Below are positions 2,618 to 47,637 of a DNA stretch of 51,032 bases, piece by piece (positions within the stretch are counted from its first letter, which is position 1; every line of letters begins with the position of its first letter). The notes beneath the pieces are model-generated. The model was not told where the DNA came from and ran no database searches. It worked only from the letters and a program-made list of their open reading frames with translations. The stretch lies in NCBI GenBank assembly GCA_037144095.1, contig JBAWXL010000001.1, positions 1 to 51,032 on the forward strand, read 5' to 3'. This DNA comes from Bacteroidota bacterium. Lineage in GTDB: Bacteria > Bacteroidota > Bacteroidia > Bacteroidales > CAIXTV01. A program made the position numbers and the translations under genes.

Positions 2618-2786
2618 TTTTTTTAATTTTTAAATTTACTTACTCGTAAGGCTTTTCAGTTCCGCCCCGTTTTTATGGTGGTTTCTAGTCTCCACTTTTA
2701 TTTTTTTCTTTTATTAAATTTAATCATGAACTTTTAAAGCATTTCTTCGGTGGTTCTTGTTTCTAATGTTTCTTTTTAATGTTTGA

Positions 2787-3289: not shown

Positions 3290-3460
3290 ATATTTCATTT
3301 TTAATTTGCTTACTCGTTAGGCTTTTCAGTTCCGCTCTGTTTTTATGGTGGTTTCTGGTCTCCACCATTATTTTAGTTTATATTAAATTGTATGAACGAT
3401 AGAAATATTTCTTAGTTGGAGCTCATGTCTGATTGCTTTCGCTTTCTTAAACTTGAATTC

Positions 3461-9332: not shown

Positions 9333-9517
9333 CAGGCACATGATACGAACATCACATTAAAAAATTTAAAGCCATGTTTAATAAAACAGCCACTTCCTTC
9401 CCCTCTCTTCAACCCACACATGGCTGTGCTTTCAATTCTATAAATCCCTGCTCCACTACCCCCAATCAAACTCTTCCTTTCATTCCTCATTTTTCCCCCT
9501 TTTCTTTTCTGGATAAC

Positions 9518-9838
9518 ATCGTCCATTCACTTGCTAATTCCGTCAATAATCTTTTTTCTTCCGGCAGTCGTCTTGCTGAGTCCGTCAACTCACTTACTGA
9601 ATCCGTCAGTCGACATTTTAAATCCGTCGCTCAACATTTCAATTCCGGCAGTCGTCTTTTTTCTTCCGTCATTTCACTTTTTGAATTCGTCACTCATCTT
9701 TTCGATTCAGAAAGTCGTCTTTCTTATTTCGTCAATTCACTTGCTGAATCTTTCACTCATCTTTTCGATTCCGTCACTCATCCCTATGACTTCGTCACTC
9801 AACTTTATGACTCCGTCACTCATCTTTTTTATTCAATT
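9518..9838. repeat. Tandem array A: 15 units of exactly 21 bp (consensus TCCGTCACTCATCTTTTCGAT)
   Basis: The TCCGTC-like unit starts fall at 9518 + 21n without a single indel. Two + strand frames stay open across it (track ORFs 9374..9925 and 9531..9962). Confidence 0.9.
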
Positions 9839-9997
9839 CCTCTGCATCCTAATGCTGACAAGGCTTTCCGAAGTATTTCAAATTGGTCATCTTCTCACAA
9901 TAAGGAGTTTTCTTTCACTAACTAAAAATATAAAGCAATCAATTATAAAATATAATTACTAGAATATCAATCAATTAATCATTTAAATTTAATTATC

Positions 9998-11008
9998 ATG
10001 GAAGCAAAACTTCAACGTCATTTCGATTCCAAATTAAAATTACAGGATTTTTGCGTCATTAACGACGATCCCCTCTCACTCCTTATCGAATATCCTGTAT
10101 TAATCATTCTTCTGAATCTGATCATCAACAAAATTCATGCAGCAGTTGCCATTAACAAAGCCAATCTAAAGCACTTTGCCACCAACAAAGAAATCCTTCA
10201 AAGAGTTATGGTCGATATCGTTTGGCGCTATCAACTCCGCGCCCGTGTTTTCGCACGCAATAACAATTTACCCGATATCTATCAGTCGCTTAAATTCGAA
10301 AAATCATATATGTTAGATAACGACGATGCCACAGTTATCGATAGAGCTAAAGAAATCATGAAAATCATGAAAACTCACCTTTCACTACTCACAAACCTAA
10401 CTCAGGCAAATATCACCGAAATGGAAGCAAGCATAGCAGCTTGCGAAGAAAATCTCTTAAGTCCCGAAGAAGCTATTAAAGACCGCAAAGCCTATGGCAC
10501 CGATCTTATCCCCGGTTTATTAAAAGAAGCAGATGTCGTCACCGACGATATTGGCGATTTAGTAGAATCCTATCTTGAAGACCTTTATCCCGATTGGCTC
10601 GTTAGAGCAAAGATTGGCAAAGCCACCGGCACACGCCATCAATCCATTTCAATTAAATATCTTGATGCCGCTACTAAAGCTCCTCTTAAAAAAGTAAAAA
10701 CAACTATTACAAACGCCACTGGCACTATCACCCAAGTATTCTACAGCACAAAAGCCGGATGCGTAACCATCTACAGCCTCGAAACAGGCAATTGGACTAT
10801 TACTTCAGAATATCAAAACTATATAACCGACACCAAAGCCAATGTAGGCGTATTCGATAAAAAAGTTGCCAAGTTCGAAATCAAACTCCAACTCCATACA
10901 GCTCCCACCCCTCCCGAATCCACAGCCGAGCCCACACCCCCAACTTCTGAAATCACCCCAACCCCCGAACCTTCCCCAACCCCCGAACCCACTCCCCCCA
11001 GCGAATAA
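9998..11008 (+). CDS. Hypothetical protein: helical N-terminal region, beta-rich C-terminal region and a Pro/Thr/Glu-rich tail
   Basis: 336-aa ORF ending in the low-complexity tail TAPTPPESTAEPTPPTSEITPTPEPSPTPEPTPPSE. It is followed by a strong terminator. I recognise no family. Confidence 0.65.
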   Translation: MEAKLQRHFDSKLKLQDFCVINDDPLSLLIEYPVLIILLNLIINKIHAAVAINKANLKHFATNKEILQRVMVDIVWRYQLRARVFARNNNLPDIYQSLKFEKSYMLDNDDATVIDRAKEIMKIMKTHLSLLTNLTQANITEMEASIAACEENLLSPEEAIKDRKAYGTDLIPGLLKEADVVTDDIGDLVESYLEDLYPDWLVRAKIGKATGTRHQSISIKYLDAATKAPLKKVKTTITNATGTITQVFYSTKAGCVTIYSLETGNWTITSEYQNYITDTKANVGVFDKKVAKFEIKLQLHTAPTPPESTAEPTPPTSEITPTPEPSPTPEPTPPSE

Positions 11009-11046
11009 CACCAATCATAAATCCTAAATCTCAAATCTTAAATTCC

Positions 11047-11072
11047 AAAAGGCTTACGCAAGTAAGCCTTTT
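11047..11072 (+). terminator. Rho-independent terminator
   Basis: AAAAGGCTTAC-GCAA-GTAAGCCTTTT lies 39 nt after the stop at 11008. A second hairpin, CCTGAC-TGCC-GTCAGG, sits at 11149-11164. Confidence 0.75.
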
Positions 11073-11191
11073 CCTTTGTGCAGCTTTGTGCAAAACCTTA
11101 GTGAAACTTTGTGTCCCAGCCTTCCTTCTTAATTCTTGGAATTTGAAACCTGACTGCCGTCAGGCAAGTTTTGGGGCTTGGGTCTTTTTTC

Positions 11192-11247
11192 TAAAAGCCT
11201 AAATGTCTAAACAGCTAAATGCCTAAAAGCCTATTAGCCTAACTACA
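11192..11247. repeat. 8-bp microsatellite, 7 units (TAAAWGCC-like)
   Basis: The units are TAAAAGCC TAAATGTC TAAACAGC TAAATGCC TAAAAGCC TATTAGCC TAACTACA. The last unit overlaps the stop codon of the gene at 11243. Confidence 0.7.
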
Positions 11248-45420: not shown

Positions 45421-46233
45421 TTATAATTTTGTAATCCAATTAAAATCAAGAATTTTAAAATGTTTAAATTCGTATTTATCATCTGTTTGTATGAAAATGA
45501 AATAGTTTTTCCCATGAGGGTCTTTCAACGGAATCCAATCATTATTTTGATATATAAGAGGTTGAACTAAATAATATTCTTTATAATGAGACATTAGGCT
45601 ATTTTGCTTTTTTGTAAATGTACCATTAAATGATATTCTATCAAGTTGACCATCATTGTTTATATCGCAATAGATATCATGTGGAAATTGCAAGCCTTCA
45701 ATTATCTGATATTCAATTTTATTTCCTTTAATGCAAAATATTTGATCATATTCAATTAGACAAAAGCTTCCATTACATTTTGGGGCATATGAATGAAGTA
45801 TTATATAAGTTATCCCATTTAGATTATAAATTGAAGCGTTTGTAATTTCAAGTCCCCAAAAAAGATTATTCGAATCAGGTAATAATATTTTATCATTTAT
45901 TTGAATATATGAGTTTGAATAATAATTTGGCAAACTCCAAATTGGATATTTTGTTGTGTCGTAAAACGAAATGAACTTTATTGTCCAGTTTTCTAACCTA
46001 ATGTTTTTAATCTCTTTAATAGTGTCATTCGAAATCTTTATAGTTGTTGATGAAGTATCTAAAATTGAATATGGTAATATTCTGCTAGAACTATTAATAT
46101 ATATGAAATTATAAAAATCATAAAAAGACTTAAAGTGATTTTTTGAAGTTGATTGACCAGAAGATAAATTAATTATAAATATTACAAATAGAAAAATAGA
46201 AAATATTGATTTTGTTATTTTTTTTATTGGCAT
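45421..46233 (-). CDS. Hypothetical secreted protein, very AT-rich gene
   Basis: 270-aa ORF with signal-anchor-like KSIFSIFLFVIFIINLSSGQS and a DINNDGQLD Ca-binding-like motif. I recognise no family. Confidence 0.6.
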   Translation of the reverse strand: MPIKKITKSIFSIFLFVIFIINLSSGQSTSKNHFKSFYDFYNFIYINSSSRILPYSILDTSSTTIKISNDTIKEIKNIRLENWTIKFISFYDTTKYPIWSLPNYYSNSYIQINDKILLPDSNNLFWGLEITNASIYNLNGITYIILHSYAPKCNGSFCLIEYDQIFCIKGNKIEYQIIEGLQFPHDIYCDINNDGQLDRISFNGTFTKKQNSLMSHYKEYYLVQPLIYQNNDWIPLKDPHGKNYFIFIQTDDKYEFKHFKILDFNWITKL

Positions 46234-46488
46234 AGTTTTTTTATTTTCAATTCCGTTTTTTTATGTGGTTTCCACCTCCACCTTAATCCACTGTAAAATT
46301 ACATATATTATAATTCTAAACATCATTATTGAAAAATATTTCTGATTATTCCTTCCAAAAACAACCAAAAATTACTCCCCTAAAAAACCATTTTTTTCCT
46401 TCCAAAATCCCCTAAAATCCCACCATTATGATCACCTTTTCAAGTTTTACTTACATTTAATTTTAATTTAGTATCAGGAAATTAAGAT

Positions 46489-46761
46489 TTAATATCACTA
46501 AATTAAAATATATTGACAGTAAATTTAAAGTTAGTAGCTATTTTTCTTTTCTTATTGTTAGTAAATCTAAATTAAATGTCCATAAATCTTTGGTCCTGTA
46601 CATACTATTTAGATTTTCTGTTCTTAAATCTTTTTTGTTGGATAGGAAATTTAGATTTGTGGCCAACAAATCAAGATACTATGACCACAAATCTAGAAAA
46701 CTTGTCATGAAATCAAAAAAATATGTCAATAAATCTAGATTTATTGACATATTTTAGTCTT
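46489..46761. repeat. Tandem array C: 13 units of exactly 21 bp (core AAATCTAGATTT), ending in a perfect 32-bp palindrome
   Basis: The AAAT[CT]... cores fall at 46489 + 21n for every n from 0 to 12 (units 4 and 7 are degenerate or inverted). The palindrome ATATGTCAATAAATCTAGATTTATTGACATAT is at 46731-46762. Confidence 0.9.
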
Positions 46762-46866
46762 GGTAATTAACTTGAATTCAGCACCATACAGAACGTTTAC
46801 TTTATTTTAACATTTCAAACGATGAAAATATGGCTGATTTGAGGAGGCTTATAAGTAGGTATCAGC

Positions 46867-46874
46867 CAAAAATA
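46867..46874 (-). promoter_or_regulatory. Candidate -7 box (TATTTTTG on the minus strand) pointing through array C toward the gene at 46233
   Basis: The + strand reads CAAAAATA, which is the reverse complement of TAnnTTTG. Confidence 0.3.
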
Positions 46875-46998
46875 TTAAGGCAATTAAAAGCGGCTCAAAA
46901 ACAAAAGTCGGCAATCTGCAATTACCCAAATGTGTGAATTTTGGTTTTGCTGACTGCCGACTGTAGACTGCCGACTTTTAATACTTTAAAGTCAGATA

Positions 46999-47637
46999 TT
47001 ATATCGCCATAAAGTAAATATATTGGCTCCAATCGCTTTTCCCTGCACCCGTTGTTGCACGATAACGGAAATAATAAGCAGTACCCGGAGTCAAGCCTTT
47101 AAGCAAATATTTGCAATGCATAGTCCCTTCGATTTCCGTCCAGGTATGACCATCGGTGCTCATTTGCCTTTCGTAGTAAGTATGTGGTCCCTTCGATTTA
47201 ATAATAAGATTAACTGTTCCCGAAACATCATGACGAGCTTCAAAGTCTTTTTTGCTGGAAACATACACTTTTTGAGTTCTGTAGCCATGTGCTTCAATAA
47301 TAGCAATGGCTTGAAGAGGATTTTGATCTGCAGTCCATTGAACCAGGGCAGCCCAACAGTGTAAAGCAGATTCTACCGGTAATTTAGCCAAATCGCGTTC
47401 TGAGGCAAGACCAATAGTACGTTGTGAAACTTTAGATTGTGCGGTCGAGTAGGTGCCTAAAAGACCTGTTACGACCAGAATGGTCGGAATGGGCGAAGTA
47501 ATCCATGTGGATGAAGTAAATAAATTAATTTTTCCGTGAGCATAAGTTATTAAATCATTGTCCTTTGAAGGCATTTCTTCAATAACTAATGGTCGGGTTG
47601 GTTTAACTTTTTCTTCGCTAACAACTTGTTTTCCCAT
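46999..47637 (-). CDS. Hypothetical protein with a C-terminal fibronectin-III-like domain
   Basis: 212-aa ORF whose C-terminal part is Fn3-like (GLTPGTAYYFRYRATTGAGKSDWS). Confidence 0.6.
   Translation of the reverse strand: MGKQVVSEEKVKPTRPLVIEEMPSKDNDLITYAHGKINLFTSSTWITSPIPTILVVTGLLGTYSTAQSKVSQRTIGLASERDLAKLPVESALHCWAALVQWTADQNPLQAIAIIEAHGYRTQKVYVSSKKDFEARHDVSGTVNLIIKSKGPHTYYERQMSTDGHTWTEIEGTMHCKYLLKGLTPGTAYYFRYRATTGAGKSDWSQYIYFMAI

Follow-up and report, generated by a model that had tools for sequence, protein, structure and literature searches.

We analysed a 51,032-nucleotide stretch of DNA (the window; contig JBAWXL010000001.1) from a Bacteroidota bacterium, and we report here on Array C, a run of 21-bp units at 46479–46751 that lies beside a gene for a 212-aa protein. 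Array C is supported as a phase-locked, non-random feature. The array was also shown to be statistically linked to the gene family of its neighbour, whose members join an N-terminal helical domain to a C-terminal fibronectin type III (FN3) domain (the helical+FN3 family). We tentatively propose that Array C is a helically phased non-coding minisatellite, which could serve as a DNA platform and form a module with the adjacent gene. The source assembly (G000) is a metagenome-assembled genome of a freshwater Bacteroidota, with 471 contigs, 4.7 Mb and 36% GC; the sister species used for comparison (G001) is an uncultured freshwater bin under the record CAIXTV01.

Array C and its terminal palindrome

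Set out in 21-bp rows, the sequence of Array C showed thirteen units in perfect register, with the consensus AAATCTAGATTTnnTGnCAnn and starts at 46479 + 21n. The units follow one another head to tail without spacers, and no strand was assigned to them. The self-match of the array at lag 21 was 0.50, compared with 0.29–0.36 at lags 15–27; relative to the top lag in 5000 shuffled sequences, this gave z = 8.5. AAAT opened 11 of the 13 units (binomial tail 3e-17). A first-pass annotation of the window had described thirteen units in perfect 21-bp register, and the self-match and the AAAT starts agreed with it; its array coordinates were 10 too high, with unit starts at 46489 + 21n instead of 46479 + 21n. 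The one degenerate unit and the one inverted-core unit that it listed are both present, the former at 46542, where the sequence is T-rich, and the latter at 46605, where the other dyad half, CTATTTAGATTT, is kept. Information was found at unit positions 1–9 (AAATCTAGA) and in a second conserved block at positions 15–19 (TGnCA). The mean identity between units was only 52%; therefore Tandem Repeats Finder (TRF), which the annotation had suggested as a check, saw the array as just two fragments (46465–46536 and 46689–46739).

The unit core was indeed a dyad, AAATCTAGATTT, as had been noted, and the annotation had taken it to suggest a dimeric binding site. We searched the 4.7-Mb assembly for this motif and found three occurrences, two within the Array C element family and one elsewhere. 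A dedicated dimeric regulator for AAATCTAGATTT is conceivable but gains no support from this search, which gave a single site outside the element family.

The array ends in a turn-around at 46718–46755, again without an assigned strand, in which the last unit is followed by one inverted unit. This end is the one nearest the 212-aa gene. A perfect 32-bp palindrome, ATATGTCAATAAATCTAGATTTATTGACATAT, occupies 46721–46752; it had been reported at 46731–46762, and the sequence was right but the position was not. It extends to 38 bp with its A and T runs, A7 on one side and T4–7 on the other. All four known copies of the element (described below) kept the palindrome, and their arm sequences differed yet remained complementary. 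In the window, the arms are ATATGTCAAT and ATTGACATAT on the two sides of AAATCTAGATTT; in the sister species, ...TGTGGGAAG and CTTCCCACA... enclose the same core, and in the paralog on contig C54, ...TGGGAGAAG and CTTCTCCCA... enclose AAATATAGATTT. The arms are 20 bp long in the latter two copies, indicating that the palindrome is one whole unit, inverted and abutting the array.

As RNA, the window palindrome folded at −16.7/−16.3 kcal/mol (z about −6), and the palindromes of G001 and C54 at about −24 kcal/mol. The hairpin, with U runs on both strands, resembles an intrinsic terminator. A scan with a terminator consensus passed it over, since its stem contains fewer than three G-C pairs, and its A and T runs also simply belong to the inverted unit. 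The inverted terminal unit could double as a two-way terminator hairpin. These properties bring in an RNA partner: the array might be transcribed independently into a repeat RNA of hairpin-plus-linker modules that is bound, titrated or cut by the adjacent protein, in loose analogy to type III repeat antitoxins or sponge RNAs. In keeping with this, internal dyads with arms of at least 5 bp occurred in 34% of the units of the 21-bp arrays of this genome versus 12% of shuffled units, and the array flanks are strongly strand-asymmetric, being G-poor on one strand. Constant-size repeats of 52 nt in Bacillus coagulans have been reported to be transcribed (PMC8625621), and the BrickBuilt elements have bidirectional promoter activity (PMC4596501). 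However, Rfam gave nothing for Array C at the gathering score, and in E-value mode only chance miRNA-like matches at the palindrome. An exact period of 21 answers no evident need of a single-stranded RNA, whereas B-DNA has such a need; the 5-bp dyad is absent from two thirds of the units; and the palindrome, being symmetric, indicates no strand. Moreover, the candidate promoter box beside the array is not conserved, and the 212-aa protein shows no ToxN/AbiQ-like or other RNase fold. We regard an RNA partner as unlikely, though still a serious rival.

One plus-strand frame stays open across the array for 96 codons (46467–46754) in DNA of 23% GC, while the other five frames are closed. The frame had been correctly described apart from its coordinates, which were given as 46477–46764. 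It reads in heptads, K-S-R-F-x-x-x, as the unit period equals seven codons, and it could be taken for a small heptad-repeat protein. The frame has no ATG, and its sole in-frame start is a TTG that would give 55 aa. Two stops interrupt it in the G001 ortholog, as do two in the C54 paralog; the C54 copy is open in another frame. These stops bear out the doubt already expressed about its being a gene. The dyad core leaves two of the three plus-strand frames stop-free by construction, so the open frame is a by-product; in addition, all six frames are closed in 36 of the 176 arrays of the same class in this genome. A coding role is hardly credible, and these comparisons show Array C to be non-coding.

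Link between the arrays and a helical+FN3 gene family

The 212-aa gene lies on the minus strand at 46999–47637. It ends at 46999, and Array C begins 247 bp downstream. The encoded protein has an N-terminal four-helix domain and a C-terminal FN3 domain, no signal peptide and no named family. Pfam matched fn3 only, and NCBIfam gave nothing for this protein. An AlphaFold2 model built on an 11-sequence alignment reached a predicted local distance difference test (pLDDT) score of 84.5, compared with 38 for a poor single-sequence model. A PDB sequence search, Foldseek searches of the PDB and viral fold searches with the 212-aa model gave matches confined to the FN3 part, and PHROGs gave only weak matches to tail proteins, mainly over the FN3 region.

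A tblastn search of the source assembly with the 212-aa protein indicated that arrays follow its paralogs. We then counted pairs by one criterion, a full-length member (about 200–215 aa) with a non-coding array of 20, 21 or 42 bp within about 300 bp. A profile search found 11 family members in the source assembly. Nine of them (on C1, C154, C38, C11, C31, C95, C46, C12 and C127) had an array 50–300 bp downstream, past a terminator hairpin; the members on C206 and C6 had none. The base rate of an array at any gene end was about 8% (272 of 3442 open reading frames (ORFs)). In the sister species, all four members had an array just downstream, with periods of 21, 20, 21 and 20. One of these four is the ortholog of the window protein (80% identity), and the other three are paralogs at 25–27%. 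The period-20 arrays show that the rule is 20–21, like that of a published class of repeats discussed below. The arrays of period 20 beside FN3 paralogs lie on L069 (1–188) and L071 (1092–1375), with 9.4 and 14.2 copies and 93–95% match.

The pairing also appeared in distant lineages. An exhaustive HMMER search yielded dozens of full-length relatives at 30–37% identity, and each of those with sufficient flanking sequence had an array. P0042 has 15.6 copies of 21 bp at 134 bp downstream, and P0060 has 10.8 copies of 21 bp at 190 bp downstream. The array lies upstream of the gene for P0039 (a 21/42-bp array at 69 bp), for P0126, which is on a GC-rich 4-Mb contig (13.8 copies of 42 bp), and for P0072 (a small array of 42/21 bp). 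When 120 genomes were sampled evenly from the phylum, only two others carried the family, and 3/3 members had a 21/42-bp array 30–180 bp upstream. Together, these make eight informative distant relatives, some in GC-rich genomes, and 8/8 had a 21/42-bp array within 300 bp. G119, a genome of three contigs, has two gene–array pairs. Overall, 21 of 23 informative members were paired with an array, on either side of the gene and with unrelated unit sequences. The pairs span the source assembly, its sister species, other Bacteroidota and GC-rich bacteria from metagenomes. The literature searched held no description of such a gene–array pairing.

Other orphan families in the source assembly were linked to arrays with fixed polarity. 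A family of about 307 aa had an array upstream in 17 of its 30 members (median 268 bp), and a 255-aa family (C48:378–1145 and four paralogs) had one downstream in 5/5 (median 64 bp). For the 255-aa family, hhalign gave a weak link to the helical+FN3 family (E = 3e-4 over 125 columns), and it revealed no relation to the FN3 family for the 336-aa and 220-aa array-linked families. The 336-aa gene of the window (9998–11008) may belong to the family of about 307 aa, judged by its position behind Array A. Array A (9500–9835) has about 16 units of 21 bp with an xSVTHLF-type frame and a super-period of 63 bp. A 183-aa ORF that is probably spurious (9374–9925) encloses it, and this 336-aa orphan gene follows downstream. 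The window also encodes a secreted giant protein of 7166 aa (23337–44837) whose repeats are leucine-rich, glycine-rich and Ig-like. Crude clustering put 116 members in its family; genes of this family flank 26 arrays, of which 20 lie on the downstream side.

Copies of the element and the 21-bp arrays of the genome

The whole element, about 600 bp long, had two paralogs in the source assembly and an ortholog in the sister species. The copy at C367:54–706 was 93% identical to the window element and had exactly one additional unit; the copy at C54:10311–10950 was 65–74% identical and had 19 units. The G001 ortholog was split across two contig ends and adjoined the ortholog of the 212-aa gene. There were 60 units in total: 13 in the window copy, 14 in C367, 19 in C54 and 14 in G001. 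When anchored on the terminal unit, the copies aligned unit by unit and differed in length by whole units only, and none of the 60 units was out of register. The degenerate unit, the inverted-core unit and two idiosyncratic cores (AAATCAAGATA and AAATCTTTGGT) recurred at matching places among the copies.

On one side of the array is a C/A-rich, G-poor spacer, or leader (46330–46478, no strand assigned), which consists of short repeats of the CCCCTAAAA type and two decayed pre-units (46437–46478); the first-pass annotation had rightly pointed to the skewed composition at 46330–46440. On the other side is a conserved tail box (46753–46880, no strand assigned), which includes ATTTTAACATTTCAAAC.ATGAAAATAT..CTGA and aligns in all four copies. 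Compared with the sister species, identity was 77% across the spacer, where 165 bp contained 7 small indels, and 87% across the tail of about 120 bp, with 3 small indels in 120 bp. The array was 68–75% identical, and its net length change was in whole units only. We used the 212-aa gene as a neutral yardstick for these two genomes; its identity was 66% at 80 fourfold-degenerate sites and 79.7% at the amino-acid level. By this comparison, conservation of the tail exceeds the neutral level (87% vs 66%). The array is near the level of the fourfold sites and changes length by whole units, so its sequence drifts about neutrally and its register is maintained.

The gene beyond the spacer differs in every copy, and the G001 ortholog has yet another gene there. 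The C367 array lies upstream of typA, and the C54 copy sits between convergent genes. The C54 copy has no 212-aa gene except for a remnant of about 35 bp from the 3' end of the gene, indicating that the copies arose by duplication of the gene end together with the array. Next to its palindrome end (C54:10693–10776) are four near-identical units, AAATCTGAAAGTGTTCCGAAG, that have lost the second dyad half and appear to have been amplified locally in recent time. In the sister species, the C54 locus carries no array, and synteny is broken in both sister species. A BLAST search for the element in 40 relatives found it in the sister species alone, and scans of genome contigs and metagenome contigs with the exact tail-box pattern found G001 and chance matches only. 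The Array C locus was present in DNA metagenome runs only, and assemblies break at Array C elements.

Some of these observations would fit a non-autonomous mobile element, in which leader, minisatellite and tail are moved together by a transposase acting in trans. BrickBuilt elements, from a related order, have the same layout, a leader, a tandem array and a tail that always lie between genes (PMC4596501). There are three copies in the genome, one of them at 93% identity; presence differs between sister species; and the assembly breaks at the elements. However, neither terminal inverted repeats nor a target-site duplication were seen at the ends of the 93% duplicate (46349/46982; one pair, inspected by eye), and its right end is a repetitive extragenic palindromic (REP)-type hairpin. 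The fragment of the neighbouring gene in the C54 copy points to segmental duplication. In addition, the roughly 176 arrays of the genome share short microsatellites only, with no leader or tail in common, and their units are unrelated, whereas all BrickBuilt units form one 23-nt family. Mobility of this kind seems quite improbable.

The first-pass annotation had placed the array in a leader of about 625 nt running from a promoter box to a gene for a 270-aa secreted protein, with the array as an operator-like set of sites for a dimeric regulator. Two of the positions it gave were accurate: the ATG of the 270-aa gene is at 46233, and an exact TAnnTTTG box, TATTTTTG, lies on the minus strand at 46867–46874. 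An operator would also agree with the dyad core AAATCTAGATTT, whose sites all fall on the same face of the helix, and with the position of the C367 array upstream of typA. However, the box is present in the window and C367 but absent from G001 and C54, and a 14–19-bp hairpin between A and T runs, the palindrome described above with its U run, separates it from Array C. The downstream gene is a different one in each copy and in the ortholog, and the 270-aa gene has proximal elements of its own, a DUF805-RNA-like hairpin (46225–46286) and a promoter-like site near 46307–46335. A leader of the 270-aa gene is unlikely because one copy lies between convergent genes; the arrays genome-wide have no promoter-side preference, and the conserved neighbour, the 212-aa gene, is on the opposite side. 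Thus, we consider the leader and operator model very improbable. The DUF805 RNA match just upstream of the 270-aa ATG is weak (28.8 bits, below the gathering score of 51.1; minus strand). Two strong DUF805 RNA motifs of 79 and 68 bits lie on the minus strand elsewhere in the window (2632–2700 and 3302–3370).

Directly after the stop codon of the 212-aa gene is a REP-like hairpin on the minus strand (46898–46985), GTCGGCAG...TGCCGAC followed by a T run. It comprises the 7-bp TGCCGAC repeats that TRF reports at 46948–46976. Copies of this hairpin were found on C367 (60–140), C123 and C70, and hairpins of the same type also lie 3' of the paralogs of the 212-aa gene on C46 and C38, directly after stop codons. 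The G001 ortholog lacks it. It is probably the 212-aa gene's own terminator, a repeated element separate from the array. Along the minus strand, the order of the module is therefore the 212-aa gene, the REP-type terminator hairpin, the tail of about 120 bp, the inverted unit, the 13 direct units and the spacer, which is G/T-rich on this strand.

Array C belongs to a large class in its genome. An autocorrelation scan of the source assembly found 226 regions with a strong self-match at lag 21, and at most 17 at any other lag from 6 to 45 except 42. TRF gave 224 rows at period 21, 107 at 42 and 18 at 63, with 9 each at periods 20 and 22. After merging, there were 176 intergenic arrays (about 37/Mb), with a median length of 207 bp and a mode of 10–11 units. 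Unit sequences were unrelated between arrays (e.g. ACGTATGTATGTACTGGCGCT, TACGGGGTTTAACCGGTAGCC and ATAATTAAGACCCAAGTAAGC). The arrays occupy long spacers (median 780 bp), and all four orientation classes of flanking genes (co-directional, convergent and divergent) were equally represented, indicating that the arrays, as a class, are not promoter elements. The flanks are G-poor on one strand and carry C/A-rich microsatellites of 6–8 bp and hairpins; clustering the flanks of the roughly 176 arrays gave no common leader or tail and was driven by these microsatellites and hairpins. Arrays are accompanied by C/A-rich short repeats, namely (CTCAAC)n, (ATCAGCAC)n, (CTAAATGC)n and (AATCTTA)n, in the window at 10956–11049 and 11190–11233; across the assembly, TRF counted 47 period-8 and 44 period-7 arrays.

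A terminal inverted unit with arms of at least 12 bp occurred in 26/153 arrays, compared with 4/300 random windows. The array of the C95 paralog likewise has its inverted unit at the gene-proximal end. Some arrays turn into an entire inverted array without a change of register; at C15:14220–14500, direct units flip in this way to inverted units and form a long head-to-head composite palindrome. Growth polarity toward the palindrome was marginal (12/17 arrays, p = 0.03), and most units of the class have no internal dyad.

A neutral or near-neutral origin deserves most care among the alternatives considered here. By this account, a mutational bias of the lineage, such as slippage or unequal exchange in 21-bp steps, makes and resizes arrays wherever an intergenic spacer has room; Array C would be an old, decaying and functionless case that came to lie beside an FN3 gene by co-duplication or through shared variable regions. 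Several facts agree with it. The array diverges at about the neutral rate, its units decay in either dyad half, the paralogs differ in copy number by whole units, and near-identical units were recently amplified in the gene-less C54 copy. The copies came from segmental duplication carrying a piece of the gene 3' end, and the C54 locus has no array in the sister species. Arrays occur in every intergenic orientation class. Their abundance varies within the genus, with about 7 in 129 kb (about 54/Mb) in G001 and 1 in 200 kb (5/Mb) in G002; samples of 20 other families in the order, 323 kb altogether, had none. Nevertheless, an inherited period should drift, yet 21 exceeds 20 and 22 by about 25 to 1 although the unit sequences have been replaced. 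Sixty units were without small indels while their flanks gathered them, and array length peaks at 10–11 units instead of declining steadily. The adjacency to the FN3 family holds across paralogs at 25–37% identity and across phyla with unrelated units, so co-duplication does not explain it. We consider a neutral origin rather unlikely, but a serious rival.

Possible role and comparison with known systems

In the platform reading that we prefer, Array C would act as double-stranded DNA. The smallest whole number of base pairs equal to a whole number of B-DNA turns would be 21; since a unit spans exactly two helical turns, every unit would show the same face, and only multiples of 21 would hold all units on one face. 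A small bend in any repeated unit would then add up in one plane. The array might be a platform on which a protein oligomerises, most likely the product of the adjacent fast-diverging gene, as with Rep on iterons and ParR or ParB on repeat centromeres. Nucleation, or the boundary of the platform, would be set at the dyad core and the terminal inverted unit.

We used a wedge model to estimate curvature, with approximate results. The 21-bp arrays appeared strongly curved (median end-to-end/contour ratio 0.72, vs 0.93 for random DNA); periods of 20 and 22 gave far less curvature, and periods of 19 and 23 showed none of the effect. Strong curvature is predicted for the C54-type array and mild curvature for Array C. 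Selection for intrinsic curvature itself was rejected, as real units were no more curved than shuffled ones (p = 0.44). This suggests that the phase itself is more likely selected, as a track for a protein oligomer.

The curvature result also belongs to the points that weigh against a platform, and there are others. The gene-less C54 copy persists and has recently expanded, and the sequence of the array diverges almost neutrally (68–75% vs 66% at fourfold sites). The single RNA run from the same sample had no reads over the Array C region. The N-terminal domain of the 212-aa protein, the part joined to FN3, had no recognisable match in fold searches, and FN3 domains are not known to bind DNA. 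The side also varies, with the array downstream of the gene in this genus and upstream in other lineages. Finally, about 176 arrays face only 11 family members, so most arrays are not explained by this family.

A broader possibility is that the helical+FN3 protein and its array are a cognate, co-evolving two-part module across bacterial phyla, with each paralog polymerising on its own unit, as DNA or as repeat RNA. We find this doubtful but worth stating. If true, it would supply the first function and the first protein partner for repeats of constant size and variable sequence, and the other array-linked orphan families (about 307, 255 and 220 aa) would be further such partners. A functional pairing would represent a new kind of protein–repeat module; otherwise, the strictness of the 21-bp period points to a mutational ruler.

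Among known systems, iterons and repeat centromeres (R6K, pPS10, P1 and F; R1 parC/ParR and F sopC/SopB) consist of direct repeats of about 20–22 bp phased at two turns. Array C shares with them two-turn-phased direct repeats together with an inverted repeat of the same unit, a spacing that is kept while the sequence differs, and a position beside a diverging gene. An iteron origin or a repeat centromere was rejected because the 212-aa neighbour has no Rep, ParR or ParB-like domain (fn3 only in Pfam, nothing in NCBIfam and FN3 in fold searches). The present arrays also differ in that DnaA boxes and a partner ATPase are absent, that one genome has more than 170 of them on the chromosome, and that the putative partner is a helical+FN3 protein with no known DNA-binding fold.

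Type III toxin–antitoxin systems (ToxIN, CptIN and TenpIN) have units of 34–45 nt in 2–6 copies, always upstream of an endoribonuclease toxin. They too have a family-specific tandem array beside a protein gene, with a terminator hairpin between. We rejected this assignment, as the units here are 21 bp in 10–19 copies, lie downstream of the terminator of the gene and accompany a helical+FN3 protein. A clustered regularly interspaced short palindromic repeat (CRISPR) array was rejected as well, because the 21-bp units abut and the 9-bp variable part is itself repeated (TGnCA).

Borg elements of Methanoperedens, which are archaeal and extrachromosomal, carry many fast-evolving, locus-specific tandem repeats, both intergenic and genic (PMC9879509). 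Independently arisen, locus-specific repeats are common to both; the abstract on Borgs mentions no single fixed unit length, unlike the case here (PMC9879509). The BrickBuilt (23-nt) and MITE464/PgRS (41-nt) minisatellite elements of Porphyromonas gingivalis (Klein et al., 2015; PMC4596501) are closer. Like Array C, BrickBuilt elements belong to Bacteroidota, are strictly intergenic, consist of a leader, a spacer-less array and a tail, occur in tens of copies with variable unit number, and are confined to one species or genus. A leader and a tail likewise align among the window, C367, C54 and G001 copies. BrickBuilt has a single 23-nt unit sequence, IS5-like terminal inverted repeats and 0–6% indels, whereas the period here is 21 and the units are unrelated across about 176 arrays, so membership in a family with one shared unit was rejected. 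The present arrays are also linked to specific neighbouring gene families, unlike BrickBuilt.

The closest match is the class of bacterial repeats of constant size (20–21 nt, some 40–41) and variable sequence, as presented in passages of Subirana and Messeguer (2021; PMC8161180). There, the unit is noted to equal two helical turns, and small RNAs or proteins polymerising on DNA are proposed. As in that class, the arrays here are non-coding, with many families of the same length but unrelated sequence per genome and a patchy distribution among taxa; Array C itself has at least four spacer-less units of 20–21 nt, is non-coding, and is one of many families of one length. In the same passages, the class is described statistically, mostly from Bacillus and other complete genomes, whereas here about 37 arrays/Mb occur in uncultured freshwater Bacteroidota. 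A linked gene family, terminal inverted units and unit-by-unit orthology are absent from those passages and present here. Array C is a new, well-resolved member of this published repeat class, which is still without an explained role. The locus adds an old array that can be compared unit by unit across species and paralogs, a recurrent end structure in which a single inverted unit closes the array, and a specific neighbouring protein family beside arrays in 21 of 23 cases from distant lineages. This link to a gene turns a descriptive repeat puzzle into a question that can be tested at the bench.

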